Below, one piece after another: positions 1,322 to 53,047 of a DNA stretch of 64,000 nt (its first letter is position 1; each line of letters starts with the position of its first letter). Below the pieces are notes generated by a model. It searched no databases, had not been told where the DNA came from, and worked only from the letters and a program-made list of their open reading frames with translations. This stretch comes from Mustelus asterias (taxonomy: Eukaryota), in the NCBI RefSeq assembly GCF_964213995.1, contig NW_027590159.1, forward strand, positions 1 to 64,000, written 5' to 3'. Made by a program: the position numbers and the translations under genes.

Positions 1322-1367
<46 letters not shown>

Positions 1368-1879: not shown

Positions 1880-1925
<46 letters not shown>

Positions 1926-2030: not shown

Positions 2031-2034
2031 AGTA

Positions 2035-4445: not shown

Positions 4446-4544
4446 TAAACCTGTGTGTGGAGGTCTGCAATGAGAGAGAAGAAAGATCTCAAGCGGCAGT
4501 TTGGTGTTCAAATGTGGGAGCTGCCCTGCAAATGTGGAGAGCTG

Positions 4545-21682: not shown

Positions 21683-22691
21683 TCTGGCAGCCACCACGCC
21701 CGCATGGGTGGGCCGAGAAGGCCCTGCCACCGGCGACGCTGGTGATGTCGCCATGGTATCAGGGGAAGTGCTACACCCACCCCGAGACTGCCCAGATGCA
21801 CGGCAGGGCGTATATGTGGAGGGAAAAATAAGGGAGGGTGGGGTAGGTGGGTAGGGGTGTAGGTGTTCTCTCCCCGGAGTGAGAGGGAGAGAGGAGGTCG
21901 GAGCAGTGGGAGGGAGATGAGGCACAAGGCCGGTGCCCCAGTCAGGAGGGAAAAAGGGGAGGGTGCACCAATCTTGGGGATAGCAGCAGTGGGTAGGGGA
22001 ATTAGGAAAAGGTCTTCACCCCCCCCACTGCAGATGGAGAAGAGACAGTCCAAACGCCTTCACCCCCCCCCCCCCTTCTCCTCCAGTTACTCTCTTCCTC
22101 CCTCCCCCCGGGGAGAGCGCACCCTCCAGAGGCCGGATGGCAGGCAAGCAGGCAGTCCAGACGGCAGGCAGCCCAGACGGCAGGCAGGCAGGCAGTCCAG
22201 ACGGCAGGCAGGCAGGTAGGTAAGCAGGCCAGACGGCAGGCAGGCAGGTAAGCAGGCCAGACGGCAGGCAGGCAGGTAAGCAGGCCAGACGGCAGGCAGG
22301 CAGTAAGCAGGCCAGACGGCAGGCAGGCAGGTAAGCAGGCCAGACGGCAGGCAGGCAGGTAAGCAGGCCAGACGGCAGGCAGGCAGGTAAGCAGGCCAGA
22401 CGGCAGGCAGGCAGGTAAGCAGGCCAGACGGCAGGCAGGCAGGTAAGCAGGCCAGACGGCAGGCAGGCAGGTAAGCAGGCCAGACGGCAGGCAGGCAGGC
22501 AACAGGCAGGCCGGGCAAGGCAGGCAGCAGCTCACCTCCCTCCTTCCTCCCCGCAGGGAGCCAAGAACAAGCAAACAAAACAAACAAAACAAGCAAACAA
22601 AACAAAACAAACAGAACCGGGCGTCTTCTTAAACAAACCCACCCCGGAAACAAAGTGCAGGCGCTGCCCCAGAGGAGGCACGTTTCAGGCC
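21683..22691 (-). mobile_element. Tx1-clade non-LTR retrotransposon copy A: 5' UTR plus first ~24 codons of ORF1 (3'-truncated)
   Basis: Clearly homologous to 28792-30123 (MATSPASPVAGPSRPT start, 28-bp minisatellite, CGTTTCAGGCC 5' end). Confidence 0.9.
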
Positions 22692-22845
22692 GTCTGAAGC
22701 TCAATCTTCATTCAGAGACCTCTTTTTAGGTCAAACCAAGTAAATAAACTCAAATTAAATCAGGACAAAGTAAAAGGGGCAGCTCCCCAAAAAGGAGGGG
22801 AAACAGCCCGAACAGAAATCAAAATGCAAAGGAAACTTAAAAACA

Positions 22846-25800
22846 TCAAATTAAAATGTGATTATTAGGGTCAATAATGCACCCCAACCCCTGCGGTGCC
22901 CAGTGGGCGCGGAAAGCGTCAACCTCGCCCGTGGACACCGCATGCTCCCTCTCCAGGGACACCTGGCCGCGAACGTAGCCGCGGTAGAGGGGAAGACAGT
23001 CAGGATGGACGGCCCCCTCGATCGCCCGCTGCCTGGACCGGTAAATGGCGCGTTTCGCCAGGCCCAGGAGCAGGTTCATGAGGAGGTCGCCATCCCGACC
23101 CTCCCCTCTCCGCACCGGGTGTCCGTAGATCAGGAGCGTGGGACTGAAGTGTAAACAAAACATCAATAAAAGGTTCTTCAGGAAAACATAAAGGGAGTGC
23201 AGCCTAAGACACTCAACATAGACATGGTCCACGGACTCCACAAGGCCACAGAAAGGGCAGTCTTCGGAGCCCGTGAACCAGTGAATCCTACGGTTGTGCG
23301 GAACTGCTGCATGCATCACCCTCCACCCCAGGTCCCCGACGTAATTGGGGGAGATCCCTCCGTAGAGGGACCTCCAGCGGGGACCTCCGCCGCCCGGCGG
23401 CAACAAGGCCCGCCAAGGTGTATCCGGGCGACAGGCGAGGAGGCGGTAGTGGAGGGTGTGCAGCAGCAGCCCGCACAGGAAATGCCTCCGTGCGGTAGAA
23501 AAAGGCACGGAGGGCATTTCCGCGAGGCGGCTCAGGCTGTAGGGCACCTCACCCAGGGGAGGGGGCTGAGGCTTTGGGCCAATGTGGAATTCCGCCCGAA
23601 CAGGGGAACGCTCGGGCGGGATCCCACCGCACGCCTGCGCCGTCTCAAGTTTGCGTGCAGTTTCGGGGCCGAGCACGACCGTCCTAAGGTCTAGGATGGC
23701 TTTGGCCGCGCGCCGGACGGACGTCCCCGCACGCTCAGCCAGCACGCGGGGACTCATCCAGCCCGCTCCTCCGCCATCGAGCATGTCCCCGATTCTGGTC
23801 ACCCCGGCGTCCACAGCCCCCCTCTCCGCCAGCCACCTGAAGTTATACGGCTGGAGGAGCGGATTCCTGAGCAGCGGCTCTCGCACGAGAGCCGCTACTC
23901 CTGACGGGGGAGAGCTGCGTCGCGAGGCGACCTTGTTCCAGACAGTGAGGAGGTCCTGGTAAAAGACGGGCAACTCCTGCAGGGCGGTCGAAGCACGCCC
24001 CAGTTCGATATGCAGGAGCTGCACGTCATAATTGAGGCCGTGCCACTGGCGGAAGAAATACGTCGCCATGGCACACCACTGTGGAGGGGGCTCAACGTAA
24101 AGGTACCTCTGCAGGGCCTGGAGGCGGAAGGTCGCTATCTGAGTGCGGAGGCACACCAGACCTTGTCCGCCCTCCTCAAGCGGGAGATACAGGACCGCAG
24201 CAGGGACCCAGTGCAGTCGATTGCCCCAGAAGAACCGCACGAGGGTTCTCTGGATATCGGTGACAAAGCCAGGGGGAGGGGTCAAAGGGACCAGCCGGTA
24301 CCACAGCATGGAGGCGACCAGCTGGTTTATGACGCGAGCTCGCGCCCCGTAGGACAGCACTCGGAGCAGTCCTGTCCAGCGACCCAGGCGGGCGGAGACT
24401 TTGGCCTCCAGCTCCCGCCAGTTCGCCGGCCAGGATTCCTCGGCTGGGCAGAGATGGGCCCCCAAGTAGAGGAGGTCGGTCCTGCTCCAGGTGAAAGGCC
24501 TGAGCTCCTCCGGGAGGGGGTCCGTCTCCCAAGGACCGACAAGGAGTCCGGAGCACTTGGCCCAGTTGATCCTGGCGGAGGACGCGGCGGAGTACACCGC
24601 CTGGCATTCTCGCATCCTCCGCAGGTCAGCCGGGTCCGTGAACATGAGGAGCACGTCGTCGGCGTAAGCTGACAGGACCACCCCTACGTCCGGTCCGCGC
24701 AGGACCAAACCTGACAACCTCCTCCGCAAGAGGCGCAGGAATGGCTCCACGCATACGGAATACAGTTGGCCGGACAAGGGGCAGCCCTGCCGTACTCCTC
24801 TCCCGAAGCGAAGGGGCGCCGTCAGGGACCCGTTAACCTTAATCAGACACTCTGCGGCAGAGTACAGTCATCGGATCCGGGCGACAAAATGCGTCCCGAA
24901 CCCGAATGCCCGCAGAGTCCCGAGTAAATACTCGTGCTCCACCCTGTCGAACGCCTTCTCCTGATCTATTGACAAGAAGGCGCCCGACAGACCAGCCCTC
25001 TGGGTGTGATGGATTAGGTCCCGGACCAGGTGGAGATTGTCATGTATGCAACGGCCCGGGACCGTGTAGGACTGGTCAGGGTGGATCAAGTGGTCCAGCA
25101 CGGATCCAAGGCGTGAAGCCATAGCCCTGGCAAAGATTTTATAATCCGTGCTGAGGAGGGAGACCGGGCGCCAGTTCTTGAGCAGGTGGAGATCCCCCTT
25201 CTTGGGCAGCAGGGCAATGACGGCCCTGCGCCACGAAAGGGGCATCTCCCCGGTAGCGACGCTCTCCCCCAGGACCCCCGCGTAGTCGCTCCCCAGGACG
25301 TCCCAGAACGCCCTGAAGAACTCTACTGTCAGCCCGTCCAGCCCAGGGGCCTTGCCCCGGCTGAGGCCATTTAGGGCGCCGGTCAGCTCGGCCATGGTGG
25401 TAGGGGCCTCGAGCCTGCCGACGCCCTCCGGGCCGACCTGCGGCAGGTCCTCCCACAGAAGTCTGCGGGCATCCTCGCTGGACGGATCCGGAGAGAAGAG
25501 CGAGGTGTAATACTCCCGGGCAATGGCCCGGATGCCCTCCGGATCCGAGACGGGGGAACCGTCGTCGGCCAGCAGCGTAAGGAGCTGCTGACGGTTAGCC
25601 CGCCCTCTTTCCAGCGAGTAGAAGAAGGGGGAGCCGCGGTCCAGGTCCACCTGGAACTGGAGCCGCGACCTCACGTACGCGCCGCGAGACCTGGCAAGCT
25701 GCAGGTCTCGCAGCGCGTCCTTCTTCTCCCTGTACTCCCAACGCAGGGCCGGGTCCGCGTCAGGCCGACTGAGACGTGCCTCCAGGTCGAGCACCTCCTT

Positions 25801-26739
25801 CTCCAACTCCTCGAGCCTGGATTTCCGCCTCTTTGTCGACCCCCTCGCGTACCCCTGACAGAAGGTACGGACGTGAGTCTTGCCCACATCCCACCAGAGC
25901 CTCAAGGAGGGGAAGCCTCCCCGCTTCCTTCTCCAGCCGGCCCAGAATCGACGGAACGAGTCCAGGAAGCGCTCGTCCTCCAGCAGCGTGTTGTTAAAGT
26001 GCCAGTACGCGGACCCCCGCCGGATGCGAGACGGCGCAAAGTCCGCCCACACCAGGCTGTGGTCCGTGCTCGACACCGGCCGCATGGAGACCGAGGACAC
26101 GCCGGACACGTGCGCCTTCGAAATGTAAAGGCGGTCGAGCCTGGACGCTCCGACTCCAGGCCTCACGAAAGTGAAGGCGCTGGAGCCAGGATGGAGATGT
26201 CTCCAGACGTCCACCAAGTCGTGGGACCCGATCAGGTCCCGCAACTTCACCACCGCCGGAGTGCGCAGCCAGGGGCCGGTGCGGTCCCGTGCCTCGAGGA
26301 TGCAGTTGAAATCTCCCCCGAGGATAATGCATTCGCCCCCCGCGATGGTGTCGATGTGAGCGGACACTTTCTCGTAGAAAGTCGTTTGCTGCGGTCCAGC
26401 GGTCGGGGCGTAGACATTCAGCAAGTGAATGACCACGCCCCCCTCACGGACCGTCAAGTGCAGCAACCGGCCTGGCACCGGCTCCTTGACCCCCAAGATC
26501 TCCGGCTTATAATGCGGGGCCAACAAGATAGCCACCCCGCAAGAAGCGAGCGTGAGGTGGCTCATGTAGACCCCCCCTCGCCACTCCAGGAGCCATTGGG
26601 CTTCGTCTCCCGGAACGGTGTGGGTTTCCTGCAGGAAACACACCGCATACTTCCCGTCACGGAGGACCGAGAAGTTCTGGAACCTGCGGTGTGGCCCACT
26701 GCTGCCGTTGATGTTGAGGCTGGCTATGGTCACCTTCAT
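22846..26739 (-). pseudogene. Tx1 ORF2 (APE endonuclease, reverse transcriptase, C-terminal CCHC) with one in-frame TGA at 24868-24870
   Basis: SLNING, FLQETH, GGDFN, SRLDRLY, TDH (APE); KNWRPVSLLSTDYK, IDQEKAFD, SAYADDV (RT); CPFC...H...C. ORFs 26739-24868 and 24777-22846 are in the same frame. Confidence 0.95.
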
Positions 26740-26767
26740 GTCAGCAGCTTTGTGCCACCGTCACCAC

Positions 26768-28863
26768 TTAACTAGGTGTGTGGGGGGGCGCTGGCGCAAT
26801 TCTCACCAGTCCACCCCCCACCTTTTCGAGCCTGTGGAGGAACCGCAGTACCCAGCGCCGCTCTATTTTCTCCAGGCCCGCGGAGGCATGCGAGCATGCC
26901 TTCACGGACCGGACGAGCTGCGCCAGGTCCGGCCAGCGGCCGAGGGCTAGCCGGATTATGTCGGAGCGACCGGAATGGCTACGGATAAAGACCCCGAGGT
27001 CCTTGGAGGGGATGAGGGCCGACTCGGTGGGGGGCACGAGGGAGTCCCCCGCCTCGCTCTGGGCAGACTCTGAAAGTGTCCCCGTGCCCTCCACCGAGCC
27101 GCTGACCTCCTCAGGGCGGTCGCCCCTCGACTCCGAGTCCCCCGCCGCAGGACGTACGGCGGGCGGCACGGAGCCACCAACTAGCCCTAGCCCCTCCCCG
27201 ATCCCACCCCCAGGATCGGTGGAGGAGGGGTTCCCCCCGGGCTCACCTTTCCTGGATTGCGGGCCCCCGTGCGACGGCGGCCCAGCCCCCCCCCCCGCCC
27301 CAGACGCTTGGACACCCCCCAGGTCCGGTGTATCCTTCGGACTGAGGTTGGGGATGTCCAGCGTCCAAGGTCGGGACGGAGAGGACGAGTGGATCGTCTC
27401 TTCGCCGCCGCCGCACGAGGACATGAACATTGGAGTGTCGCCCCAGTCCCCCGACAGACTGAAGAAGAACTCCGGGTTGTAACCGGCCGGGTGGAACGGA
27501 ACCGTGGGGGCCCCGCTGCCACCCGGCCCCGGAGACTCCTCGCCGGGGGACTGAGGCAACACATGCTTCGATTTGCAGGGTGCCTTGCCCCCTTTTTTCA
27601 GGGGACAAGGCACAAGGACAGGTGGGGGCACGGCAGGAGATGACTCACAAGGGGGGAGGGGCACGCAGACCTCGAACTCTACGGTGCCCGAGGGGCCCCG
27701 CCTCTTTTTGTTAACCTGCCCTCGGGCAGGCGAGGCCCCTCGCCCTCCGCCCCTCTTCGCCTTGCCGCGCCCCCCCTGCTCTCCCGTCACTTCCCCCCGA
27801 GGTGGCGGCGTCGCCAGTTTTGCCGGCTCGGGGTCGCTTACCCCCCCCATGCTCGGGCCCATGATCCCGGGCGCCGGACCCAGCACTAGGCCCCGGAGAG
27901 CCCACGGGCCCGGCAGATGGTGGTGGTGGGGGGGGGGCGCAGGTGGAGACTGAGGCGGTCCCCGAGCCGGCTGCCGGGGTGGTTGGGGTGTCTTTACTGC
28001 GGGCCGGGGTTCCGGTACCCCCCTTCTTTTTCGTGGGTCCCTTCTGGGCCCTTTGGTCGCGCGGGGGCTCCGCTCCCCCCCCCGCCGGCAGCTGAGGTGG
28101 CAGCTGCTGCCGGCGTGGCCTCCCCTCGCGGGGGGGCAGATGGTACTCGCTTGGGGGGAGAGGGGGCTGCGGTGCCAGCTGCGGCCGCCTTGGGTTGGTG
28201 GTCGGCGGCCTTGGAGACGGGGCAGTTTTTCCTCACGTGCCCCGCCTCCTTACAGGCATGGCACCGCACACCGTCCGCGGACCAAAAGACCCGGTACGTG
28301 GTCCCCTCGTGGGGGACATTGAAACCTCCCTCCAGTTCCTCCTCCCGGGCCAGGCGGACAAAAACCTGGCGCCGGAAGGAGTATATGTGGCGGAGGGAGG
28401 GGTCCCGAAGGCCGAGCGGGATCGGCTGCACCCCGGACCTGACCTCCCCCAGTAGATGGAGGTGGGGGAGGAGGAGCTCACTCGGTAGGAAGGGCGGGAC
28501 GTTCGATATTACTATCTTGTGGGCGGTGGCCTCCAATGGGTCCACCGCCAGGAACGTCCCGCCCACCGTGAGCCCCTTTTCCAGGGCGAGGCGAACCGCC
28601 CGCTCGGCCTTCAGGAAGAATACGGCCCGGCCGTACATCTTTGAGGCCGCGACAATGGCTGAGGGGCCGACAACCCCAGCCATTGCCTTAACGCAGGCCT
28701 CGATAGACATGTCGGGGTGGGCGTAGCACTTCACCCCGAGCTGCCGTGTGATTAAAGAGAATGGTGGCAGGGCCTTGGGAGCGGCGGGGGCTCTGGCAGC
28801 CGCCACGCCCGCATAGGTGGGCCGAGAAGGCCCTGCCACCGGCGACGCTGGTGATGTCGCCAT
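26768..28863 (-). pseudogene. Tx1 ORF1 (RNA-binding, CCHC zinc knuckle), interrupted near 27994
   Basis: MATSPASP...IVAASKMYGRAVFFL...ISNVPPFLPSELL...SFRRQVF...CHACKEAGHVRKNC; continues as a Pro/Gly-rich ORF at 27886-26768. Confidence 0.85.
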
Positions 28864-29264
28864 GGTATCAGGGGAAGTGCTACACCCACCCCGAGACTGC
28901 CCAGATGCACGGCAGGGCGTATGTGGGATGGGGAAGATAAGGCAGGGTGGGGTAGGCGGGGAAGGGTGTAGGTGCTCTCTCCCCGGAGCGAGAGAGGGAG
29001 AGAGGAGGTTGGAGGCGCAGGAGGGAGATGAGGCACAAGGCCGGTGCCCCAGTCAGGAGGGAAAAGGGGAGGGGGTGCCGGTCCCGGGGGCAGCAGTAGT
29101 GGGTAGGGGAAATAGGAAAGGTCTTCACCCCCCCCCACTGCAGATGGAAAAGAGACAGTCCAAACGCCTTCGCCCCCCCCCCTCTCCTCCAGTCACTCCC
29201 TGTCCTCTCTTCCTCCCCCCCCCCCCCCCGGGGAGAGCGCACCCTCCAGAGGCCGGATGGCAGG

Positions 29265-29870
29265 GAAGCAGGCAGTCAGGCAGTCCAGACGGCAGGCAGG
29301 CTAGACGGCAAGCAGGCAGGCAGGCAGTCCAGACGGCAGGCAGGCAGGTAGGTAAGCAGGCCAGACGGCAGGCAGGCAGGTAAGCAGGCCAGACGGCAGG
29401 CAGGCAGGTAAGCAGGCCAGACGGCAGGCAGGCAGGTAAGCAGGCCAGACGGCAGGCAGGCAGGTAAGCAGGCCAGACGGCAGGCAGGCAGGTAAGCAGG
29501 CCAGACGGCAGGCAGGCAGGTAAGCAGGCCAGACGGCAGGCAGGCAGGTAAGCAGGCCAGACGGCAGGCAGGCAGGTAAGCAGGCCAGACGGCAGGCAGG
29601 CAGGTAAGCAGGCCAGACGGCAGGCAGGCAGGTAAGCAGGCCAGACGGCAGGCAGGCAGGTAAGCAGGCCAGACGGCAGGCAGGCAGGTAAGCAGGCCAG
29701 ACGGCAGGCAGGCAGGTAAGCAGGCCAGACGGCAGGCAGGCAGGTAAGCAGGCCAGACGGCAGGCAGGCAGGTAAGCAGGCCAGACGGCAGGTAAGCAGG
29801 CCAGACGGCAGGCAGGCAGGTAAGCAGGCCAGACGGCAGGCAGGCAACAGGCAGGCCGGGCAAGGCAGGC
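29265..29870. repeat. 28-bp minisatellite in Tx1 5' UTR (TAAGCAGGCCAGACGGCAGGCAGGCAGG)n; shorter copy at 22135-22530
   Basis: Direct inspection of near-perfect tandem units. Confidence 0.95.
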
Positions 29871-30149
29871 AGCAGCTCACCTCTCTCCTTCCTCCCCGCA
29901 GGGAGCGAAAAACAAACAAACCCAACAAAACAAAAACAAAAACCGGGCGTCTCCGTGAGCAAAAACGAAAAAAAATAAAGGTACTCACAAAAAGAAAAGA
30001 AAACAAACCCAAAATTTCCGCCCGGCTCCGACCCGGGGCCCCCCGCTACTCGGGCGAACGTGAACTCACCCCACCCCCGAAACAAAGTGCAGGCGCTGCC
30101 TCGGAGGAGGCACGTTTCAGGCCGTCTGAAGCTCAATTTTCATTCAGAG

Positions 30150-30640
30150 AGAGAGCAGCAGCAGCTTCGCTGGGCAGGAATGAGCAGCTGAACAAGCTCA
30201 TTGTGCAACTTCCGCATTCAGACAATGTGGGAGCTCTGATTGGCTGGAGGATTAAAGAACTTCCGGTCCTCCAGAGTTTCCATTGGTCAAACCCCGCTGA
30301 CAGACAATGAGGGGCGGAGCCCCACGTGGGGGTGGGCGGGACTTTGTCCTCCAGCCGCGCTGAGCTGTTGTCCAATGGGAAAGGCAGGAAGAGCCGGACA
30401 GACAATGGTCAGTGCGCCGGCTTTGTCCCGGCCCCGCCCCACAATGGCACATGCGCATTCCCCCCAAAATCTGCACATGCGCACCTTTGATTCACGGCCC
30501 CTTACTAGCTCTGGCCAACAGGAAGAGTTGGAGGACCGGAAGGATTCTGGTCCCCAGCCATTGAAAGCGCGGGCCTTGTGTGAGTGAAGATGGAGTTTCA
30601 GAGAGAGTCAAACTTCTTCCTGTCGGCCACATCTGTGAGT
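30150..30640. promoter_or_regulatory. Bidirectional (head-to-head) ZNF-type CpG promoter with two divergent non-coding exon-1 arms
   Basis: Several CCAAT/ATTGG boxes, GC boxes, GCACATGCGCA (NRF1-like) twice, and inverted CTTCCGGTCCTCCA / TGGAGGACCGGAAG ETS-like modules. The right arm 30565-30640 matches the minus-strand ZNF exon 1 at 55448-55530. Confidence 0.8.
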
Positions 30641-33600
30641 GGGAAAGATTGGATTGTCCAGCCAGTCCACCATATTGGCCGTTCGCTTTGCGTGTTGGCC
30701 AGTATAGTGTGCTCCAGGCAGGGGGCGGGCAGAGGATAAGGAGTTCAAGGCGGGCTTAATGCGCGCCTTGCGGTGAGCTTTTGGAAATGTGGCCGCTGGG
30801 AGGAACGCCTTGGTCGGCGTGAAGTTTCTGTTTCAAGTGCTTGGGTTCGTGACTTGTGCAAGAACTTTTTGTTTCGGCTGGGGCTTGTTGAATGCTGCTC
30901 TCGCTGGGATTCCTGTGCCTTGAAAGGCGTGGCCCAGGTAGATGCAATCTCGGAAGACCCAAGCCAGGGAGGAGCCATTTGGGAACTATGGTTTCGGAAG
31001 GTTCAGCCGCGGAAGGTGTGACCGCAGACGGTGCAGCCCCAGTGGGTGTGATTTTGGAAGTTCTGGCCCGGAGTGGTGGACTTTGGAGGACTGTAGTTGA
31101 GCGTTGTCGACTTCGGACGGTGGAATGTTGATGGGCGAAGCTCTGGAAGGCGATGCCTCCGAAATGTTTCACAATTGTATGGTTGTTCATGGATTGTTTG
31201 TTATTGTAATATGTGGTTTTCCTGTTATGGTAGTTGGTGGTTTGTTCCGGCCCCCGTCTATTTTCTTGCGTTATTTGTGGCCTGGGGGGCATCCCCCCCT
31301 GGATGGAGTCACCCCCGGGGGGTGTGACATCCACTTGGGGAAAGTTCTGGGTGGTGAAGCCCCGGACATAGTAACACCAGAGGGATTTTTATTCTCCGGG
31401 AGAAAAATTGGGAAGGCAGGCCCGAACTGAGTACCCTGGAGAGACTCTCCCACCGCCCCGGCTGAAATTCCGGAAGGCAGTCCGGATTGAGTAGGCGGGG
31501 TGGTTTCCCCATTTCCCCCCTCCGGCTGAACATCCGTAAGGTGTAACCCCCCGGATATGAGTACCACTGGAGGGTTGCATCCCCCGGCAGGTGGACAAAC
31601 CCAGGGGACGGTGCCCTTATGCTTCAGTGTTTATTTTTTTGTTGTGTACAGTTGTAGTGTTGTGTTAATGTTTGTAGATTTGTAGATTATGATTTGTAAA
31701 TGGAGGTGTATTTTGAGGGCAATGCCCTGGAAAACTGTAATTGACGATGAACTCTTCCGAAATGGAAGGTAGTAATTGATAAATGGATGGTGTTAGCCAT
31801 CGGTAATGTATTTTTCATGAATTGTTTGTTATTGTAATATGTGGTTTTCCTGTTATGGTAGTTGGTGGTTTGTTCCGGCCCCCGTCTATTTTCTTGCATT
31901 ATTTGTGGCCTGGGGGGCATCCCCCCCTGGATAAAGTCACCCCCGGGGGGTGTGACATCCACTTGGGGAAAGTTCTGGGTGGTGAAGCCCCGGACATAGT
32001 AACACCAGAGGGATTTTTATTCTCCGGGAGAAAAATTGGGAAGGCAGGCCCGAACTGAGTACCCTGGAGAGACTCTCCCACCGCCCCGGCTGAAATTCCG
32101 GAAGGAATTCCGGATTGAGTAGGCGGGGTGGTTTCCCCCATTTCCCCCCTCTGGCTGAACATCCGTAAGGTGTAACCCCCGGATATGAGTACCACTGGAG
32201 GGTTGCATCCCCCGGCAGGTGGACAAACCCAGGGGACGGTGCCCTTATGCTTCAGTGTTTATTTTTTGTTGTGTACAGTTGTAGTGTTGTGTTAATGTTT
32301 GTAGATTTGTAGATTATGATTTGTAAATGGAGGTGTATTTTGAGGGCAATGCCCTGGAAAACTGTAATTGACGATGAACCCTTCCGAAATGGAAGGTAGT
32401 AACTGATAAATGGATGGCATTAGCCATTGGTAATGTATTTTTTTTACATTTGTTCTTTGTGTATTTGTAATTGTTTTGTATTAACGTATTTGTAATAAAC
32501 AAAAAGAAATCCACATCTGTGAGTGGGAAAGATTGGATTGTCCAGCCAGTCCACCATATTGGCCGTTCGCTTTGCGTGTTGGCCAGTATGGTGTGCTCCA
32601 GGCAGGGGGCGGGCAGAGGATAAGGAGTTCAAGGCGGGCTTAATGCGCGCCTTGCGGTGAGCTTTTGGAAATGTGGCCGCTGGGAGGAACGCCTTGGTCG
32701 GCGTGAAGTTTCTGTTTCAAGTGCTTGGGTTCGTGACTTGTGCAAGAACTTTTTGTTTCGGCTGGGGCTTGTTGAATGCTGCTCTCGCTGGGATTCCTGT
32801 GCCTTGAAAGGCGTGGCCCGGGTGGATGCAGTCTCGGAGGGCCCAAGCCAGGGAGGAGCCATTTGGGAACTATGGTTTCGGAAGGTTCAGCCGCGGAAGG
32901 TGTGACCCCAGACGGTGCAGCCCCAGTGGGTGTGATTTTGGAAGTTCTGGCCCGGAGTGGTGGACTTTGGAGGACTGTAGTTGAGCGTTGTCGACTTCGG
33001 ACGGTGGAATGTTGATGGGCGAAGCTCTGGAAGGCGATGCCTCCGAAATGTTTCACAATTGTATGGTTGTTCATGGATTGTTTGTTATTGTAATATGTGG
33101 TTTTCCTGTTATGATAGTTGGTGGTTTGTTCCGGCCCCCGTCTATTTTCTTGCGTTATTTGTGGCCTGGGGGGCATCCCCCCCTGGATAAAGTCACCCTC
33201 GGGGGGTGTGACATCCACTTGGGGAAAGTTCTGGGTGGTGAAGCCCCGGACATAGTAACACCAGAGGGATTTTTATTCTCCGGGAGAAAAATTGGGAAGG
33301 CAGGCCCGAACTGAGTACCCTGGAGAGACTCTCCCACCGCCCCGGCTGAAATTCCGGAAGGGATTCCGGATTGAGTAGGTTCGGGGTGGTTTCCCCATTT
33401 CCCCCCTCCGACTGAACATCCGTAAGGTGTAACCCCCGGATATGAGTACCACTGGAGGGTTGCATCCCCCGGCAGGTGGACAAACCCAGGGGACGGTGCC
33501 CTTATGCTTCAGTGTTTATTTTTTGTTGTGTATAGTTGTAGTGTTGTGTTAATGTTTGTAGATTTGTAGATGATGATTTGTAAATGGAGGTGTATTTTGA

Positions 33601-36600
33601 GGGCAATGCCCTGGAAAACTGTAATTGATGATGAACCCTTCCGAAATGGAAGGTAGTAATTGATAAATGGATGGTGTTAGCCATCGGTAATGTATTTTTC
33701 AGATTTGTTCTTTGTTCATTTGTAATTGTTTTGTAATATCGTGTTTGTACTAACCAACGGAAAATCTTTGCATTGTTTGTGGCCTGGGGGGTATCCCCCC
33801 CCCCCCCCCCTTGGATAGAGTGACCCCCGGGGGGTGTGACATCCAGTTGGGGAAAGTGTCCGGGGCACCCAGAGGGGTAACACCGGGGGGGTTTTGTTCT
33901 CCGGGAGAAAAATTGGGAAGGCAGGCCGAATTGAGTATCCCGGAGAGCTTTTCTCACCGCCCCAGCCGAAAATCCGGAAGGCAGTCCGGATTGAGTAGGT
34001 TCGGGGTGGTTTTCCTGTCCCCCCGCCTCCAGTCGAACATCCGTCAGGTGGAACCCCCGGACCTGAGTACCTCTGGAGGGTTGCATCCCCCGGCAGGGGA
34101 AAAACCCAGGGGACGGTGCCCTTATGCTTCAGTGTTTATTTTTTGTTGTGTACAGTTGTAGTGTTGTGTTCATGTTTGTAGATTTGTAGATTATGATTTG
34201 TAAATGGAGGTGTATTTTGAGGGCAATGCCCTGGAAAATTGTAATTGACGATGAACCCTTCCGAAATGGAAGGTAGTAACTGATAAATGGATGGCGTTAG
34301 CCATTGGTAATGTATTTTTTTCACATTTGTTCTTTGTGTATTTGTAACTGTTTTGTATTAACGTATTTGTAATAAACAAAAAGAAACCAACATCTGTGAG
34401 TGGGAAAGATTGGATTGTCCAGCCAGTCCACCATATTGGCCGTTCGCTTTGCGTGTTGACCAGTATGGTGTGCTCCAGGCAGGGGGCGGGCAGAGGATAA
34501 GGAGTTCAAGGCGGGCTTAATGCGCGCCTTGCGGTGAGCTTTTGGAAATGTGGCCGCTGGGAGGAACGCCTTGGTCGGCGTGAAGTTTTTGTTTCAAGTG
34601 CTTGGGTTCGTGACTTGTGCAAGAACTTTTTGTTTCGGCTGGGGCTTGTTGAATGCTGCTCTCGCTGGGATTCCTGTGCCTTGAAAGGCGTGGCCCAGGT
34701 AGATGCAATCTCGGAAGACCCAAGCCAGGGAGGAGCCATTTGGGAACTATGGTTTCGGAAGGTTCAGCCGCGGAAGGTGTGACCCCAGACGGTGCAGCCC
34801 CAGTGGGTGTGATTTTGGAAGATCTGGCCCGGAGTGGTGGACTTTGGAGGACTGTAGTTGAGCGTTGTCGACTTCGGACGGTGGAATGTTGATGGGCGAA
34901 GCTCTGGAAGGCGGTGCCTCCGAAATGTTTCACAATTGTATGGTTGTTCATGGATTGTTTGTTATTGTAATATGTGGTTTTCCTGTTATGATAGTTGGTG
35001 GTTTGTTCCGGCCCCCGTCTATTTTCTTGCGTTATTTGTGGCCTGGGGGGCATCCCCCCCTGGATAAAGTCACCCCCGGGGGGTGTGACATCCACTTGGG
35101 GAAAGTTCTGGGTGGTGAAGCCCCGGACATAGTAACACCAGAGGGATTTTTATTCTCCGGGAGAAAAATTGGGAAGGCAGGCCCGAACTGAGTACCCTGG
35201 AGAGACTCTCCCACCGCCCCGGCTGAAATTCCGGAAGGGATTCCGGATTGAGTAGGTTCGGGGTGGTTTCCCCCATTTCCCCCCTCCGGCTGAACATCCG
35301 TAAGGTGTAACCCCCGGATATGAGTACCACTGGAGGGTTGCATCCCCCGGCAGGTGGACAAACCCAGGGGACGGTGCCCTTATGCTTCAGTGTTTATTTT
35401 TTGTTGTGTACAGTTGTAGTGTTGTGTTAATGTTTGTAGATTTGTAGATTATGATTTGTAAATGGAGGTGTATTTTGAGGGCAATGCCCTGGAAAACTGT
35501 AATTGATGATGAACCCTTCCGAAATGGAAGGTAGTAATTGATAAATGGATGGTGTTAGCCATTGGTAATGTATTTTTCAGATTTGTTCTTTGTTCATTTG
35601 TAATTGTTTTGTAATATCGTGTTTGTACTAACCAACGGAAAATCTTTGCATTGTTTGTGGCCTGGGGGGTATCCCCCTCCCCCCCCCCCTGGATAGAGTG
35701 ACCCCCGGGGGGTGTGACATCCAGTTGGGGAAAGTGTCCGGGGCACCCAGAGGGGTAACACCGGGGGGGTTTTGTTCTCCGGGAGAAAAATTGGGAAGGC
35801 AGGCCGAATTGAGTATCCCGGAGAGCTTTTCCCACCGCCCCAGCCGAAAATCCGGAAGGCAGTCCGGATTGAGTAGGTTCGGGGTGGTTTTCCTGTCCCC
35901 CCGCCTCCAGTCGAACATCCGTCAGGTGGAACCCCCGGACCTGAGTACCTCTGGAGGGTTGCATCCCCCGGCAGGGGAAAAACCCAGGGGACGGTGCCCT
36001 TATGCTTCAGTGTTTATTTTTTGTTGTGTACAGTTGTAGTGTTGTGTTAATGTTTGTAGATTTGTAGATTATGATTTGTAAATGGAGGTGTATTTTGAGG
36101 GCAATGCCCTGGAAAACTGTAATTGATGATGAACCCTTCCGAAATGGAAGGTAGTAACTGATAAATGGATGGCGTTAGCCACTGGTAATGTATTTTTTTC
36201 ACATTTGTTCTTTGTGTATTTGTAATTGTTTTGTATTAACGTATTTGTAATAAACAAAAAGAAACCAACATCTGTGAGTGGGAAAGATTGGATTGTCCAG
36301 CCAGTCCACCATATTGGCCGTTCGCTTTGCGTGTTGGCCAGTATAGTGTGCTCCAGGCAGGGGGCGGGCAGAGGATAAGGAGTTCAAGGCGGGCTTAATG
36401 CGCGCCTTGCGGTGAGCTTTTGGAAATGTGGCCGCTGGGAGGAACGCCTTGGTCGGCGTGAAGTTTCTGTTTCAAGTGCTTGGGTTCGTGACTTGTGCAA
36501 GAACTTTTTGTTTCGGCTGGGGCTTGTTGAATGCTGCTCTCGCTGGGATTCCTGTGCCTCGAAAGGCGTGGCCCAGGTAGATGCAATCTCGGAAGACCCA

Positions 36601-39600
36601 AGCCAATAAGGAGCCATTTGGGAACTATGGTTTCGGAAGGTTCAGCCGCGGAAGGTGTGACCGCAGACGGTGCAGCCCCAGTGGGTGTGATTTTGGAAGT
36701 TCTGGCCCGGAGTGGTGGACTTTGGAGGACTGTAGTTGAGCGTTGTCGACTTCGGACGGTGGAATGTTGATGGGCGAAGCTCTGGAAGGCGATGCCTCCG
36801 AAATGTTTCACAATTGTATGGTTGTTCATGGATTGTTTGTTATTGTAATATGTGGTTTTCCTGTTATGATAGTTGGTGGTTTGTTCCGGCCCCCGTCTAT
36901 TTTCTTGCGGTATTTGTGGCCTGGGGGGCATCCCCCCCTGGATAAAGTCACCCCCGGGGGGTGTGACATCCACTTGGGGAAAGTTCTGGGTGGTGAAGCC
37001 CCGGACATAGTAACACCAGAGGGATTTTTATTCTCCGGGAGAAAAATTGGGAAGGCAGGCCCGAATTGAGTACCCTGGAGAGACTCTCCCACCGCCCCGG
37101 CTGAAATTCCGGAAGGGATTCCGGATTGAGTAGGCGGGGTGGTTTCCCCCATTTCCCCCCTCCGGCTGAACATCCGTAAGGTGTAACCCCCGGATATGAG
37201 TACCACTGGAGGGTTGCATCCCCCGGCAGGTGGACAAACCCAGGGGACGGTGCCCTTATGCTTCAGTGTTTATTTTTTGTTGTGTACAGTTGTAGTGTTG
37301 TGTTAATGTTTGTAGATTTGTAGATTATGATTTGTAAATGGAGGTGTATTTTGAGGGCAATGCCCTGGAAAACTGTAATTGATGATGAACCCTTCCGAAA
37401 TGGAAGGTAGTAATTGATAAATGGATGGTGTTAGCCATCGGTAATGTATTTTTCAGATTTGTTCTTTGTTCATTTGTAATTGTTTTGTAATATCGTGTTT
37501 GTACTAACCAACGGAAAATCTTTGCATTGTTTGTGGCCTGGGGGGTATCCCCCCCCCCCCCTGGATAGAGTGACCCCCGGGGGGTGTGACATCCAGTTGG
37601 GGAAAGTGTCCGGGGCACCCAGAGGGGTAACACCGGGGGGGTTTTGTTCTCCGGGAGAAAAATTGGGAAGGCAGGCCGAATTGAGTATCCCGGAGAGCTT
37701 TTCCCACCGCCCCAGCCGAAAATCCGGAAGGCAGTCCGGATTGAGTAGGTTCGGGGTGGTTTTCCTGTCCCCCCGCCTCCAGTCGAACATCCGTCAGGTG
37801 GAACCCCCGGACCTGAGTACCTCTGGAGGGTTGCATCCCCCGGCAGGGGAAAAACCCAGGGGACGGTGCCCTTATGCTTCAGTGTTTATTTTTTTGTTGT
37901 GTACAGTTGTAGTGTTGTGTTAATGTTTGTAGATTTGTAGATTATGATTTGTAAATGGAGGTGTATTTTGAGGGCAATGCCCTGGAAAACTGTAATTGAC
38001 GATGAACCCTTCCGAAATGGAAGGTAGTAATTGATAAATGGATGGTGTTAGCCATCGGTAATGTATTTTTCATGGATTGTTTGTTATTGTAATATGTGGT
38101 TATCCTGTTATGGTAGTTGGTGGTTTGTTCCGGCCCCCGTCTATTTTCTTGCGTTATTTGTGGCCTGGGGGGCATCCCCCCCTGGATAAAGTCACCCCCG
38201 GGGGGTGTGACATCCACTTGGGGAAAGTTCTGGGTGGTGAAGCCCCGGACATAGTAACACCAGAGGGATTTTTATTCTCCGGGAGAAAAATTGGGAAGGC
38301 AGGCCCGAACTGAGTACCCTGGAGAGACTCTCCCACCGCCCCGGCTGAAATTCCGGAAGGGATTCCGGATTGAGTAGGCGGGGTGGTTTCCCCCATTTCC
38401 CCCCTCCGGCTGAACATCCGTAAGGTGTAACCCCCGGATATGAGTAGCACTGGAGGGTTGCATCCCCCGGCAGGTGGACAAACCCAGGGGACGGTGCCCT
38501 TATGCTTCAGTGTTTATTTTTTGTTGTGTACAGTTGTAGTGTTGTGTTAATGCTTGTAGATTTGTAGATTATGATTTGTAAATGGAGGTGTATTTTGAGG
38601 GCAATGCCCTGGAAAACTGTAATTGACGATGAACCCTTCCGAAATGGAAGGTAGTAACTGATAAATGGATGGCGTTAGCCATTGGTAATGTATTTTTTCA
38701 CATTTGTTCTTTGTGTATTTGTAATTGTTTTGTATTAACGTATTTGTAATAAACAAAAAGAAACCAACATCTGTGAGTGGGAAAGATTGGATTGTCCAGC
38801 CAGTCCACCATATTGGCCGTTCGCTTTGCGTGTTGGCCAGTATAGTGTGCTCCAGGCAGGGGGCGGGCAGAGGATAAGGAGTTCAAGGCGGGCTTAATGC
38901 GCGCCTTGCGGTGAGCTTTTGGAAATGTGGCCGCTGGGAGGAACGCCTTGGTCGGCGTGAAGTTTCTGTTTCAAGTGCTTGGGTTCGTGACTTGTGCAAG
39001 AACTTTTTGTTTCGGCTGGGGCTTGTTGAATGCTGCTCTCGCTGGGATTCCTGTGCCTTGAAAGGCGTGGCCCAGGTAGATGCAATCTCGGAAGACCCAA
39101 GCCAGGGAGGAGCCATTTGGGAACTATGGTTTCGGAAGGTTCAGCCGCGGAAGGTGTGACCCCAGACGGTGCAGCCCCAGTGGGTGTGATTTTGGAAGTT
39201 CTGGCCCGGAGTGGTGAACTTTGGAGGACTGTAGTTGAGCGTTGTCGACTTCGGACGGTGGAATGTTGATGGGCGAAGCTCTGGAAGGCGATGCCTCCGA
39301 AATGTTTCACAATTGTATGGTTGTTCATGGATTGTTTGTTATTGTAATATGTGGTTTTCCTGTTATGATAGTTGGTGGTTTGTTCCGGCCCCCGTCTATT
39401 TTCTTGCGTTATTTGTGGCCTGGGGGGCATCCCCCCCTGGATAAAGTCACCCCCGGGGGGTGTGACATCCACTTGGGGAAAGTTCTGGGTGGTGAAGCCC
39501 CGGACATAGTAACACCAGAGGGATTTTTATTCTCCGGGAGAAAAATTGGGAAGGCAGGCCCGAACTGAGTACCCTGGAGAGACTCTCCCACCGCCCCGGC

Positions 39601-41897
39601 TGAAATTCCGGAAGGGATTCCGGATTGAGTAGGTTCGGGGTGGTTTCCCCCATTTCCCCCCTCCGGCTGAACATCCGTAAGGTGTAACCCCCGGATATGA
39701 GTACCACTGGAGGGTTGCATCCCCCGGCAGGTGGACAAACCCAGGGGACGGTGCCCTTATGCTTCAGTGTTTATTTTTTGTTGTGTACAGTTGTAGTGTT
39801 GTGTTAATGTTTGTAGATTTGTAGATTATGATTTGTAAATGGAGGTGTATTTTGAGGGCAATGCCCTGGAAAACTGTAATTGATGATGAACCCTTCCGAA
39901 ATGGAAGGTAGTAATTGATAAATGGATGGTGTTAGCCATTGGTAATGTATTTTTCAGATTTGTTCTTTGTTCATTTGTAATTGTTTTGTAATATCGTGTT
40001 TGTACTAACCAACGGAAAATCTTTGCATTGTTTGTGGCCTGGGGGGTATCCCCCTCCCCCCCCCCCTGGATAGAGTGACCCCCGGGGGGTGTGACATCCA
40101 GTTGGGGAAAGTGTCCGGGGCACCCAGAGGGGTAACACCGGGGGGGTTTTGTTCTCCGGGAGAAAAATTGGGAAGGCAGGCCGAATTGAGTATCCCGGAG
40201 AGCTTTTCCCACCGCCCCAGCCGAAAATCCGGAAGGCAGTCCGGATTGAGTAGGTTCGGGGTGGTTTTCCTGTCCCCCCGCCTCCAGTCGAACATCCGTC
40301 AGGTGGAACCCCCGGACCTGAGTACCTCTGGAGGGTTGCATCCCCCGGCAGGGGAAAAACCCAGGGGACGGTGCCCTTATGCTTCAGTGTTTATTTTTTG
40401 TTGTGTACAGTTGTAGTGTTGTGTTAATGTTTGTAGATTTGTAGATTATGATTTGTAAATGGAGGTGTATTTTGAGGGCAATGCCCTGGAAAACTGTAAT
40501 TGATGATGAACCCTTCCGAAATGGAAGGTAGTAACTGATAAATGGATGGCGTTAGCCACTGGTAATGTATTTTTTTCACATTTGTTCTTTGTGTATTTGT
40601 AATTGTTTTGTATTAACGTATTTGTAATAAACAAAAAGAAACCAACATCTGTGAGTGGGAAAGATTGGATTGTCCAGCCAGTCCACCATATTGGCCGTTC
40701 GCTTTGCGTGTTGGCCAGTATAGTGTGCTCCAGGCAGGGGGCGGGCAGAGGATAAGGAGTTCAAGGCGGGCTTAATGCGCGCCTTGCGGTGAGCTTTTGG
40801 AAATGTGGCCGCTGGGAGGAACGCCTTGGTCGGCGTGAAGTTTCTGTTTCAAGTGCTTGGGTTCGTGACTTGTGCAAGAACTTTTTGTTTCGGCTGGGGC
40901 TTGTTGAATGCTGCTCTCGCTGGGATTCCTGTGCCTCGAAAGGCGTGGCCCAGGTAGATGCAATCTCGGAAGACCCAAGCCAATAAGGAGCCATTTGGGA
41001 ACTATGGTTTCGGAAGGTTCAGCCGCGGAAGGTGTGACCGCAGACGGTGCAGCCCCAGTGGGTGTGATTTTGGAAGTTCTGGCCCGGAGTGGTGGACTTT
41101 GGAGGACTGTAGTTGAGCGTTGTCGACTTCGGACGGTGGAATGTTGATGGGCGAAGCTCTGGAAGGCGATGCCTCCGAAATGTTTCACAATTGTATGGTT
41201 GTTCATGGATTGTTTGTTATTGTAATATGTGGTTTTCTTGTTATGATAGTTGGTGGTTTGTTCCGGCCCCCGTCTATTTTCTTGCGGTATTTGTGGCCTG
41301 GGGGGCATCCCCCCCTGGATAAAGTCACCCCCGGGGGGTGTGACATCCACTTGGGGAAAGTTCTGGGTGGTGAAGCCCCGGACATAGTAACACCAGAGGG
41401 ATTTTTATTCTCCGGGAGAAAAATTGGGAAGGCAGGCCCGAACTGAGTACCCTGGAGAGACTCTCCCACCGCCCCGGCTGAAATTCCGGAAGGGATTCCG
41501 GATTGAGTAGGCGGGGTGGTTTCCCCATTTCCCCCCTCCGGCTGAACATCCGTAAGGTGTAACCCCCGGATATGAGTACCACTGGAGGGTTGCATCCCCC
41601 GGCAGGTGGACAAACCCAGGGGACGGTGCCCTTATGCTTCAGTGTTTATTTTTTGTTGTGTACAGTTGTAGTGTTGTGTTAATGTTTGTAGATTTGTAGA
41701 TTATGATTTGTAAATGGAGGTGTATTTTGAGGGCAACATGCACTGGAAAACTGTAATTGACGATGAACCCTTCCGAAATGGAAGGTAGTAACTGATAAAT
41801 GGATGGCGTTAGCCATTGGTAATGTATTTTTTCACATTTGTTCTTTGTGTATTTGTAATTGTTTTGTATTAACGTATTTGTAATAAACAAAAAGAAA
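30641..41897 (+). repeat. Tandem array of six non-coding retroelement-like units (1.24-2.5 kb), starting at 30641, 32525, 34402, 36280, 38779 and 40657
   Basis: Each unit has a ~550-bp head, 1-3 copies of a ~620-bp module and a tail ending AATAAACAAAAAGAAA, and is preceded by C(C/A)ACATCTGTGAGT. No recognisable protein ORF. Confidence 0.9.
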
Positions 41898-42011
41898 CCA
41901 ACAGTGTTGTTGTGTGTGTTAGCAGCATTGAATTTGCTGCTGCAAATCGTCAACATTTCTTTGCATGTGAAAGCACTGGTTGAAAGAACTGAGCAGCTTT
42001 CTCTGCCCTGT

Positions 42012-42082
42012 GCATTGGTGGTTCAGTGGTAGAATTCTTGCCTGTCATGCGGGAGGCCTGGGTTCGATTCCTGGGCAATGCA
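42012..42082 (+). tRNA. tRNA-Gly(GCC)-derived gene/pseudogene with anticodon changed to GTC
   Basis: GCATTGGTGGTTCAGTGGTAGAATTCTTGCCT-GTC-ATGCGGGAGGCCTGGGTTCGATTCCTGGGCAATGCA. The body is the vertebrate tRNA-Gly-GCC with CpG decay; A/B boxes are intact and a TTTT follows at about 42093. Confidence 0.85.
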
Positions 42083-52800: not shown

Positions 52801-53047
52801 TGTTTTCTTCTGACTAAATATCTCTAAACTTCCTGACACCCTGTCACTCTGTGATCCTTATGACATTTGAAACCAGCTATTCGCAAAAAGACTCAAAGAG
52901 CATCAGCCCACTGGAGGCTGAGACCAGCCAGTCCAGCACAAAGAAACCCTCTGACCCTTCCCATTGACCAACTGTGAGAATGAACAAAATGCAGTCCTGG
53001 AGGCAACTGAGAGCAGAAACAATGACAGCAGAATCCAACCCCTGTCA

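Follow-up and report, generated by a model that had tools for sequence, protein, structure and literature searches.

The window, a 64,000-nt stretch of the Mustelus asterias genome (contig NW_027590159.1, positions 1 to 64,000), carries a head-to-head promoter region of the C2H2 zinc-finger (ZNF) type from which two exon-1 arms diverge (Table 1). Inspection of these arms (30150-30640) bears out the divergent arrangement given in a preliminary description of the locus, as promoter and exon match those at 55479-55844. On the left arm, whose ZNF gene body is missing from the window, one of the two tandem Tx1 LINEs described there is full length; the second amounts to about 1 kb only and is cut against a hAT-like fragment. 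The right arm leads, as described, into six tandem non-coding units that start at 30641, 32525, 34402, 36280, 38779 and 40657 and measure 1870, 1863, 1864, 2485, 1864 and 1242 bp. Two exon-1 sequences that had been taken as free of elements are not: 42100-42130 belongs to the array-bearing exon itself, as its downstream half, and follows a tRNA-Gly-derived insert with a Tx1-B tail, and 55448-55517, in the paralogous ZNF gene, contains a 12-nt Tx1-B tail footprint (55463-55474). A tRNA-Asp called by ARAGORN at 42011-42083 was rejected as the origin of that insert, because what it matches at ~92% on C1 and C2058 proves to be tRNA arrays, with neighbouring copies that read GCC. An Rfam search of window positions 19000-46000 did not find U2. 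The GTGAGT inside the Tx1 5' UTR represents a relic of the target, because its context in B copies still matches the host donor.

Table 1. Features of the locus, with positions in the window.
Feature	Position	Strand	Remark
hAT-like transposase fragment (zf-BED, DUF4371; weak matches)	20860..21682	+	adjoins cut end of Tx1 copy 2
Tx1-A copy 2, 5' UTR and ORF1 start only (~1 kb), 3' part lost	21683..22691	-	
Site-1 target motif between tandem Tx1 copies, 27 nt	22692..22718	-	~15 nt are true duplication, the rest is leader brought by the element
Tx1-A copy 1, full length (7.4 kb), without poly(A) tail, 3' end ...AAAAAGAGG	22719..30123	-	
Tx1-A ORF2: APE endonuclease, RT, C-terminal zinc motif	22846..26739	-	one in-frame stop, 24868-24870
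Tx1-A ORF1, weak CCHC zinc-knuckle match, frameshifted in the window copy	26768..28863	-	
28-bp tandem repeat, Tx1 5' UTR	29259..29846	-	
Internal GTGAGT in Tx1 5' UTR	29983..29988	-	context in B copies still matches host donor
Degenerate tRNA-Val-like head, stems retained, loop boxes decayed	30013..30083	-	tRNA clearer in subfamily B
Tx1-A leader, divergent version of ZNF exon 1 (3' part)	30084..30123	-	
Left-arm ZNF exon 1, 5' part, with TC-rich site 1	30124..30200	-	
Promoter region of ZNF type, head to head, with CCAAT and GC boxes (putative function)	30200..30560	.	
Right-arm ZNF exon 1 and intact donor GTGAGT (30635-30640), site 2, upstream copy	30560..30640	+	
Six tandem non-autonomous units, 1.2-2.5 kb	30641..41897	+	a site-2 donor motif copy separates each
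tRNA-Gly-locus chimera ending in Tx1-B 3' tail, inserted at site 2	41904..42109	+	
Host-side site-2 copy, donor 42119-42124, intron to acceptor AG 42539-42540	42110..42540	+	
ZNF exon 2, open C2H2 ORF from ATG 42894	42541..44324	+	17 Pfam zf-C2H2 stretches
ZNF paralogue with a C2H2 ORF in exon 2; exon 1 to 55454, intron 55453-55089	53048..55520	-	

The ~70-nt motif at which these elements lie corresponds to a spliced 5' exon together with its donor, and belongs to a C2H2-ZNF family that occurs in clusters. A pattern search returned 845 exact donor motifs in the genome, 0 of them on contigs C1-C11; reversed patterns gave 0-3 matches versus 112-845 for the real ones. Listings here follow contig order and are not random, and whole-genome ratios rest on differing anchors. 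Among the first 30 donors listed of the 845, a same-strand C2H2 array lies downstream of 19; for another 7 the intron end or the exon-2 UTR lies within 1.5 kb, 1 was not extended, and 3 have nothing in ~7.5 kb. Taken together, 26 of the 30 sampled sites show the motif collinear with an intron, an acceptor, an exon-2 UTR and a ZNF on the same strand. An element occupies 16 of these 30 donors. Opposite-strand donor pairs occur on C71 at a spacing of 450-770 bp. Contigs of four sequencing runs, from which no start sites or levels are readable, were searched for splicing: one contig from run X1 (depth 3.1; the RNA nature of the run is guessed) has exons 1 and 2 joined at the predicted GT/AG, as read by eye, and the canonical joint was absent among 15 of the 22 joints tabulated. 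By eye only, exon 1 resembles the start of zebrafish FiNZ.

Two fixed insertion positions, both used in sense only, lie ~55 nt apart in this exon, where site 2 is at the donor, downstream of site 1. The young Tx1 subfamily A inserts at site 1; its sister Tx1-B, the 1.9-kb non-coding unit and tRNA-Gly chimeras all insert at site 2, and a 5S copy is inserted between the two. Full-length 5' ends of A fall at site 1 in 95 of the 100 heads listed (of 121). Its 3' ends are on target at 24 of the 30 best-scoring loci and in 39 of the first 100 listed, where 15 of the 39 form one local 132-bp array on C89 and 43 of the 44 on C1-C69 are off-target. For B, 93 of the first 100 3' ends listed are off-target, all on C1-C23. 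On-target junctions number 139 for A and 134 for the B tail. The unit has all 100 of its listed 5' ends (of 170) on target, and 112 of its 3' ends lie at site 2 versus 204 overall, counted with different anchors. These ends support the earlier proposal that elements target the ZNF first exon and donor, and add B and the tRNA-Gly chimeras to it; full-length A heads are mostly at the target, but truncated copies are often elsewhere. Off-target sites have just 2-4 bases in common with the target, beginning with TC at 21 of 29 loci for A and with CC at 90 of 93 for B, and truncated copies bear duplications of 10-16 nt. According to the available text of PMC4494074, a target-specific Tx1 has one sequence type in >20% of its flanks; both Tx1-A (39 of the first 100 3' ends, 95 of 100 heads) and the unit (112 versus 204, on different anchors) exceed that fraction. 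The targeting is a strong preference and not an exclusive one. We consider it likely that a small radiation of Tx1-clade LINEs, together with non-autonomous passengers, uses the conserved non-coding ZNF first exon, present with at least 845 donors, as a multicopy landing site.

Comparison of elements with their surroundings separates insertion from duplication. Median element identity is 99.7%, versus flank identities of 69% for A (n=11) and 60% for the unit (n=13), and clustering of flanks at 98% leaves 10 clusters for A and 12 for the unit. Because nearly identical elements sit in flanks this divergent, the comparison indicates independent insertions into divergent paralogues, with sequential tandem stacking. 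Leader variants differ between copies of a four-copy array on C91, and truncation points vary among on-target copies; some occupied loci are duplicates, with flank identity up to 100%. A comparison of ORF decay between occupied and empty paralogues would tell little, given how recent the insertions are.

The junction motifs first described are a real target, but part of each travels with the element. Element-only variants appear in 43 of 76 heads versus 0 of 51 host-side junctions, and 21 of 27 head/end pairs differ. As judged from these variants, the upstream (5') motif copy is inherited with the element, and the 'TSD' of 27-29 nt at full-length A copies was not accepted as a genuine duplication. 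Copies far from ZNF genes do in part hold the motif internally, but host-side 3' junctions still show targeting. The first ~40 nt of A align with the remainder of exon 1. An L228-type leader aligns with exon 1 at a score reached by 0 of 2000 shuffles; the more diverged leader of the window's own A copy is not significant (295 of 2000). The alignment identifies the A leader as captured exon 1. A polyadenylated retrocopy on C3 spans an element 3' end, the target and the next head, which constitutes read-through.

The ORF2 of the LINE is 48% identical to that of Xenopus Tx1 (P0005) over 100% coverage, and groups with Xenopus Tx1L at an SH-aLRT of 98; the tree, a quick IQ-TREE run, had 21 rows (20 picked from 120 matches) and no L1 outgroup. 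PF03372 (APE endonuclease) and PF00078 (RT) score above cut-off in ORF2, and ORF1 matches PF00098 (CCHC) at E=0.002 and 18.6 bits, below the 20.8 cut-off. Tx1 copies carry the marks of target-primed reverse transcription (TPRT): a fixed 3' end, 5' truncation and target-site duplication. The ORF2 frame is open over 1304 codons in the genomic sisters L222, L225 and L227. Between the endonucleases of A (site 1) and B (site 2) there are 13 fixed amino-acid differences, some flanking the hairpin region, and the hairpin loop is identical. Both subfamilies carry tRNA-like heads, which could be, or could have been, a Pol III promoter.

A ~540-bp 5' part opens the unit; a ~630-bp block follows, present 1-3 times, and then AATAAA with an A-rich end. 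The unit also possesses its own CCAAT and GC boxes. Non-coding, with a fixed 3' end and dispersed, 5'-truncated copies flanked by 10-15-nt duplications, it has the features of a non-autonomous retroposon; these duplications and truncations led us to drop Penelope, retrozyme and satellite readings. The target motif lies between array units, unlike a satellite without insertion marks, and no hammerhead core was seen by eye or in Rfam. Blastn and tblastx gave no significant match to A or B, with no tail in common, tblastn gave no credible match to 120 ORF2 homologues, and no coding remnant was found. In the array, ARAGORN called no tRNA head and Rfam gave no tRNA, 5S or 7SL match at gathering score; weak Rfam snoRNA matches fall below that score and were taken as chance. 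All 30 of the best 5'-end loci are unit sequence to the unit end, with no longer autonomous version among them. The unit had been called unrelated to Tx1, and this holds for similarity to A and B, but its nick position is that of Tx1-B. One sublineage was re-targeted to an LTR after capture of an LTR leader, and LTR-target copies on C3, C19 and C26, at non-ZNF loci, keep a ~29-nt relic of exon 1. The LTR-lineage deletion is found in 5 of 6 informative off-target units starting TC versus 0 of 7 starting CC (p=0.005). Unit sublineages are ~97% alike and encode nothing, and their off-target first bases track the home target. We lean toward mobilisation of the unit in trans by the ORF2 proteins of these Tx1 LINEs.

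Among Tx1-clade elements, Dewa targets tRNA-array spacers. Keno, Kibi and Koshi share the Tx1-clade preference for a target, and the off-target sites of A are TC-rich like those of Kibi; their targets are U2 genes or microsatellites (PMC4494074), in contrast to the ZNF 5' exon as main target here. Xenopus Tx1L, on the same branch, is likewise an APE-type target-preferring LINE, but its target, Tx1D, is a non-autonomous DNA transposon (PMC4494074) and not a host gene 5' exon with its donor. Crocodilian Tx1-Mar and SINEU come close in organization: Tx1 LINEs and non-autonomous retroposons share one multicopy target and prefer two positions in it, a duplication lies sandwiched between tandem copies, the 5' extensions derive from the target, and transcription from the flank was proposed (PMC4494074). 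Their target is Mariner-N4 and their passengers derive from snRNA, with no gene exon or splice donor in the available text of PMC4494074. In Drosophila melanogaster-type R1/R2, RNA-borne upstream target anneals and appears at off-target copies, and R2 is co-transcribed with its target; that target is 28S rDNA (Pol I) (PMC2718515), versus an mRNA gene family here. A protein-coding multigene family had seemed unrecognised as a target, but the trypanosome RHS genes set a precedent, as a hot spot for the LINE ingi and its non-autonomous partner RIME, where a site holds one element or several, over half of the family members are predicted to be disrupted, and a role in element control was proposed (PMC7563717). 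The shark locus does not belong to that type, as its host gene is a C2H2-ZNF and its element Tx1, not ingi/RIME; insertion in RHS is into the 5' coding region (PMC7563717), in contrast to a non-coding exon at a spliceosomal donor by a Pol II-type promoter. The turtle protein P0019 (KRAB-ZNF plus RT) was rejected as a parallel, because its LINE part lies downstream of the fingers.

Of the proposal that ZNF promoters serve as landing pad and ready-made promoter, the landing pad stands, and promoter use is suggested by leader and relic. Because the A leader aligns with exon 1 and units at non-ZNF loci keep the relic, the RNA template would have begun in or upstream of the exon. Element RNA probably begins at the ZNF promoter or an upstream copy and reads through into the downstream target. 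The chances seem even that the RNA's own flanks help to aim insertion, as RNA-flank-assisted TPRT in which base pairing would link the 3' read-through to the nicked primer strand, and annealing would bring the 5' leader onto the upstream target. Each lineage would return in this way to the site it was transcribed from, and capture of a new flank would change the site; the endonuclease probably adds a short preference, to judge from the 13 fixed A/B differences. The elements would gain a redundant, transcribed site, and damage by the unit would be limited because a complete donor is retained ahead of the array, which itself is intronic. A more far-reaching version, which we hold tentatively and think doubtful, is that target-captured RNA flanks largely program target choice, with a re-aimable ORF2, a homing-like and self-reinforcing colonisation of Pol II first exons and a ZNF dosage dial. 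Re-aiming, from site 2 to site 1 or from the ZNF donor to an LTR promoter, might then come about through a new read-through tail and leader, and about half of the paralogues of a putative repressor family might be reached in some clusters.

A rival account explains the two sites by protein alone. The endonucleases of Tx1 A, of Tx1 B and of a third partner would in that case read exon DNA, leaders and read-through would be passive, and promoters internal. Available text of PMC4494074 has the endonuclease mainly setting target choice, tRNA-like heads exist in A and B, and the 13 fixed differences, some beside the hairpin region, permit a protein-only shift between sites. The hairpin loop, for which PMC1950540 describes a role, is nevertheless unchanged between A and B, off-target sites hold only 2-4 bases of the target, and unit sublineages that encode no protein keep differing first bases matching their home target; we regard protein-only specificity as unlikely. 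A local preference of 3-4 nt (TC-rich and Kibi-like, or CCA) acting in open ZNF-promoter chromatin, where segmental duplication or gene conversion would have swollen the counts, would fit the TC and CC starts of off-target sites and the duplicate loci. It is highly improbable given two exact positions in a ~70-nt exon within a 3.68-Gb genome, flanks far more divergent than the elements, different variants in tandem copies, and truncation points that differ among on-target copies (independent points at the same nucleotide are partly seen).

A target consisting of a repeated mobile module in ZNF clusters, for example a MITE, and not of a host exon would recall Mariner-N4 for Tx1-Mar, as DNA transposons are among the Tx1 targets known from the available text of PMC4494074, and 3 of the 30 sampled sites have no ZNF body within ~7.5 kb. 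We give this very little credence, as the motif is absent on C1-C11 and collinear with a ZNF gene structure at 26 of 30 sites, and one contig is spliced. Counter-defence, in which selection would have favoured elements that disable or hijack ZNFs presumed to repress them, had also been raised and found no support. ZNF number does track transposon load in metazoans and knockdown of zebrafish FiNZ-ZNF derepresses transposons (PMC10547256, in whose available text 'cartilaginous' and 'chondrichth' occur 0 times), Tx1-A inserts 7.4 kb between promoter and donor, and occupancy of the sampled donors is high. The site is nonetheless common to hundreds of paralogues, so that no specific repressor is selected; the upstream donor is complete in nearly all 100 unit copies listed (one change in 3), the ZNF ORF behind the window array is open (42894-44324), the 25 Pfam families found in the window include no KRAB match, and one unit lineage moved to an LTR instead. 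Selection for counter-defence is accordingly very improbable.

The preferred reading, a ZNF first exon serving as multicopy landing site, has no earlier report as a LINE target in the literature searched, which lay outside Repbase and most subscription journals; further Tx1 targets are listed in the supplement of PMC4494074 and may bear on novelty. It would be an unusual case of a vertebrate retroelement with protein-coding genes as landing pad, that is, a vertebrate LINE radiation that treats the first exon of a ~850-member transcription-factor family as its rDNA. The radiation includes young copies with intact ORF2 (L222, L225 and L227), and the locus set records natural retargeting with captured flanks, which makes protein versus RNA control of LINE targeting directly testable. 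The question of LINE target choice bears on site-specific gene-insertion tools. Many gene models for ZNFs of cartilaginous fishes may have a chimeric or disrupted exon 1.

The association between retroelements and the first exon of C2H2-ZNF genes noted in the window is real and larger than first described. Inspection of the window, which is the beginning of contig C127 in the 3.68-Gb assembly searched here, confirms divergent exon-like arms at the positions first assigned to them, with Tx1-clade LINEs on the left and six copies of a non-coding element (the unit) on the right. The preliminary description counted two tandem Tx1 elements, of which the first is full-length while the second is a fragment. 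It also took two exon sequences to be element-free, and neither is: 42100-42130 is the downstream half of the array-occupied exon, and 55448-55517 carries 12 nt from the tail of a sister Tx1.

Features of the window, in order of position
Feature	Position	Observation
Low-complexity arrays	249-5160	contig start; long, CA/CT-rich and GA-rich
Another RT-bearing LINE	15036-15790, 49326-50306, 51408-52808	pieces
hAT-like transposase fragment	20860-21831 (+)	zf-BED, DUF4371 (weak matches); at deletion that removed left-arm gene
Second Tx1 copy	left, beyond 27-nt motif	~1 kb; cut off against hAT-like fragment
Full-length Tx1, left arm, sense	30123-22719	followed by 27 nt of target motif
tRNA-Val-like head in Tx1 5' UTR	30013-30083 (-)	also at loci L212, L217, L222
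Head-to-head promoter-like region	30150-30640	arms alike; both resemble paralogous 55479-55844
Six units, right arm	downstream of donor	1.2-2.5 kb each; donor motif between all units
tRNA-Gly-derived insert	right arm, after six-unit array	followed by host-side donor copy
Right-arm gene	after array	host-side donor copy, ~420-bp intron, acceptor, open C2H2 ORF
Third, short ZNF remnant	59803-60117 + 60381-60844	followed by C-rich 15-bp tandem array

The exon-intron donor motif has 845 exact matches in the genome (control, 0). The 100 listed in contig order start at C12 and concentrate on C12, C23 and C71, and the exact search found none on C1-C11. Among the first 30 listed sites, a same-strand C2H2 array lies within 1.5 kb of the donor in 11, and extension by ~6 kb reveals one further on in 8 of another 11. 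Seven reach an intron end or exon-2 UTR in the available DNA (one with an inverted ZNF piece), three have no ZNF body in view and one was not extended. In sequencing run X1, only guessed to be RNA, a single contig (depth 3.1) jumps from 55477 to 55085, and 24 letters separate the two points; by eye, these letters match the exon-1 end (17/21) and the first three exon-2 bases (2/3), which is the join predicted for a donor at 55453 and an acceptor at 55089. The canonical joint appears in none of the 15 joints shown for runs. Most of the weight for the exon identity of the motif lies on gene anatomy, above this contig.

Two positions within this exon are occupied. Site 1, its TC-rich part, is the target of the subfamily Tx1-A, whose exact 3' end occurs 220 times; a shorter anchor gives 139 site-1 junctions. 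Among the first 100 3' ends listed, 1 of 44 on C1-C69 is on target versus 38 of 56 on C71-C91, although 15 of those 38 belong to one local array (G000:C89:2431500-2433800) of ~132-bp tandem Tx1 3'-end/target repeats, 15 among the matches listed. Full-length 5' ends (heads) total 121, with the target motif directly upstream in 95 of 100 listed; the other five look like chance matches. Two element-only variants occur in 43 of 76 heads versus 0 of 51 host-side junctions (0 of 66 with the 15 C89-array rows), a comparison that took in 76 of the 121 heads and 100 of the 139 junctions. Motif copies at head and end differ in 21 of 27 pairs, and the longer apparent duplication at full-length copies is, on sequence comparison, not a copy of the local target. 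At L005/L246 (C462), L027/L245 (C91) and L014/L247 (C71), Tx1-A copies or arrays meet non-target 3' flanks (CpG-rich promoter-like sequence; antisense right-arm exon), reflecting either rearrangement or off-target insertion.

Site 2 is the splice donor, ~55 nt downstream, to which the tail of the sister subfamily Tx1-B is joined 134 times. Tx1-B is more diverse than Tx1-A and ~93% identical to it in ORF2 DNA. Among the first 100 of its 208 listed 3' ends, which lie on C1-C23, 93 are off-target, and 90 of these sites begin CC; those of a third Tx1 haplotype (L062, L065, L066, L070, L071, L077) begin ACAA. Thirteen endonuclease residues differ between six site-1 and up to six site-2 copies, with no difference in the hairpin loop itself. 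The first ~40 nt of Tx1-A, its leader, can be aligned to the remaining part of exon 1 found at Tx1-B junctions; 0 of 2000 shuffles reach the score of an L228-type leader, versus 295 of 2000 for the window's own more diverged one. After the leader region, both subfamilies carry a tRNA-Val-like head. Together, leader and head argue that Tx1-A most likely descends from a B-like site-2 copy whose RNA had its start in exon 1, and has since shifted its insertion point ~55 nt upstream. In Tx1-A the stems of this head still pair and its loop boxes have decayed, and its role may be structural rather than that of a promoter.

The unit, which failed SINE tests, is a non-autonomous retroposon that shares its nick position with Tx1-B and does not share its tail. 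It has 204 3' ends in the genome, with 112 at site 2 (the latter counted with a shorter anchor), and 170 5' ends, with the donor motif upstream in all 100 listed. Chimeras of tRNA-Gly also use site 2 (17 of 30 loci fetched), and 16 of the first 30 donors in contig order, a non-random sample, carry a site-2 insertion. A 5S rRNA-derived insert lies in exon 1 between the two sites, behind a Tx1-A copy (L016 and L022, 1863-1971); at L187 and L205, other short repeats adjoin the site-1 region.

The unit has a second preferred target in an LTR-like repeat found on C3, C7, C13, C16, C19 and C26 (L123, L125, L130, L139-L143, L146-L147, L149-L150, L242, L248, L249), where it uses the palindromic CCAAT region; a sublineage sits there on C3, C13, C16, C19 and C26. 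Junctions at this repeat show apparent 200-330-bp duplications switching into an element-borne leader, and 5' junctions on C3, C19 and C26 join a leader derived from the LTR to ~29 nt of ZNF exon 1. One deletion characterises LTR-target copies (7/9, not all independent) and recurs in 5 of 6 off-target copies at TC-starting sites versus 0 of 7 at CC-starting sites (p=0.005, leaving out five off-target rows too short for scoring). The haplotype of a unit copy is predictive of the bases with which its off-target site begins.

Duplication of a few ancestral insertions fails to explain these counts, because the elements (99.7% identical) have diverged much less than their flanks (69% identical for Tx1-A, 60% for the unit) and truncation points differ among on-target copies. 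The marks of target-primed reverse transcription are present in truncated copies, with a fixed 3' end and duplications of 10-16 nt. Tandem arrays are read through: a polyadenylated retrocopy (L228, C3:156439263), flanked by a ~10-nt duplication of its own, runs from a Tx1-A 3' end across the target and into the next head. We propose that transcription of the element would begin at the target promoter or in an upstream copy, giving RNA with target sequence at both ends; the 3' read-through would pair with the nicked primer and the 5' leader would anneal upstream. Lineages would return to their home site and would switch site by capturing new flanks, and the endonuclease may contribute a short sequence preference. 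Melanogaster-type R1 uses 28S flank sequence in like manner, according to excerpts of PMC2718515.

Insertion would have differing consequences for host genes. The unit inserts 6 nt into the intron and leaves a complete donor upstream, so exon 1 could be spliced across it; its sense AATAAA could end transcripts early. Tx1-A places ~7.4 kb between ZNF promoter and donor and is likely to silence the paralogue concerned. Inside the element, a GTGAGT after the head (9 of 15 printed heads; the weaker GTGAGC in three more) might permit splicing out. The suggestion that the elements disable or hijack ZNF repressors as a counter-defence is unsupported, since nothing in the analysis shows that these ZNFs repress transposons; it is a weak rival because the repression link comes from zebrafish and cross-metazoan data (PMC10547256, in excerpt).

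The element is a Tx1-clade LINE, and the named ORF2 homologues of highest identity are from stingray (70% over 34% of the query) and horn shark (64% over 27%), in keeping with a cartilaginous-fish host. P0019, a turtle gene model that joins a KRAB-ZNF to a downstream Tx1-like RT, is probably an annotation chimera. On-target insertion exceeds the 20% threshold for target specificity in the excerpted text of PMC4494074, where crocodilian Tx1-Mar and SINEU likewise combine a shared target, two positions, tandem copies and target-derived 5' extensions. The shark element differs by target from Keno, Kibi, Koshi, Tx1L and Tx1-Mar, and the system works like trypanosome ingi/RIME in RHS genes as excerpted in PMC7563717. 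Our literature search, which lay outside Repbase, found no ZNF-exon target of this kind. The machinery is known and the class of vertebrate target is new, and the loci preserve a history of retargeting through captured flanks.
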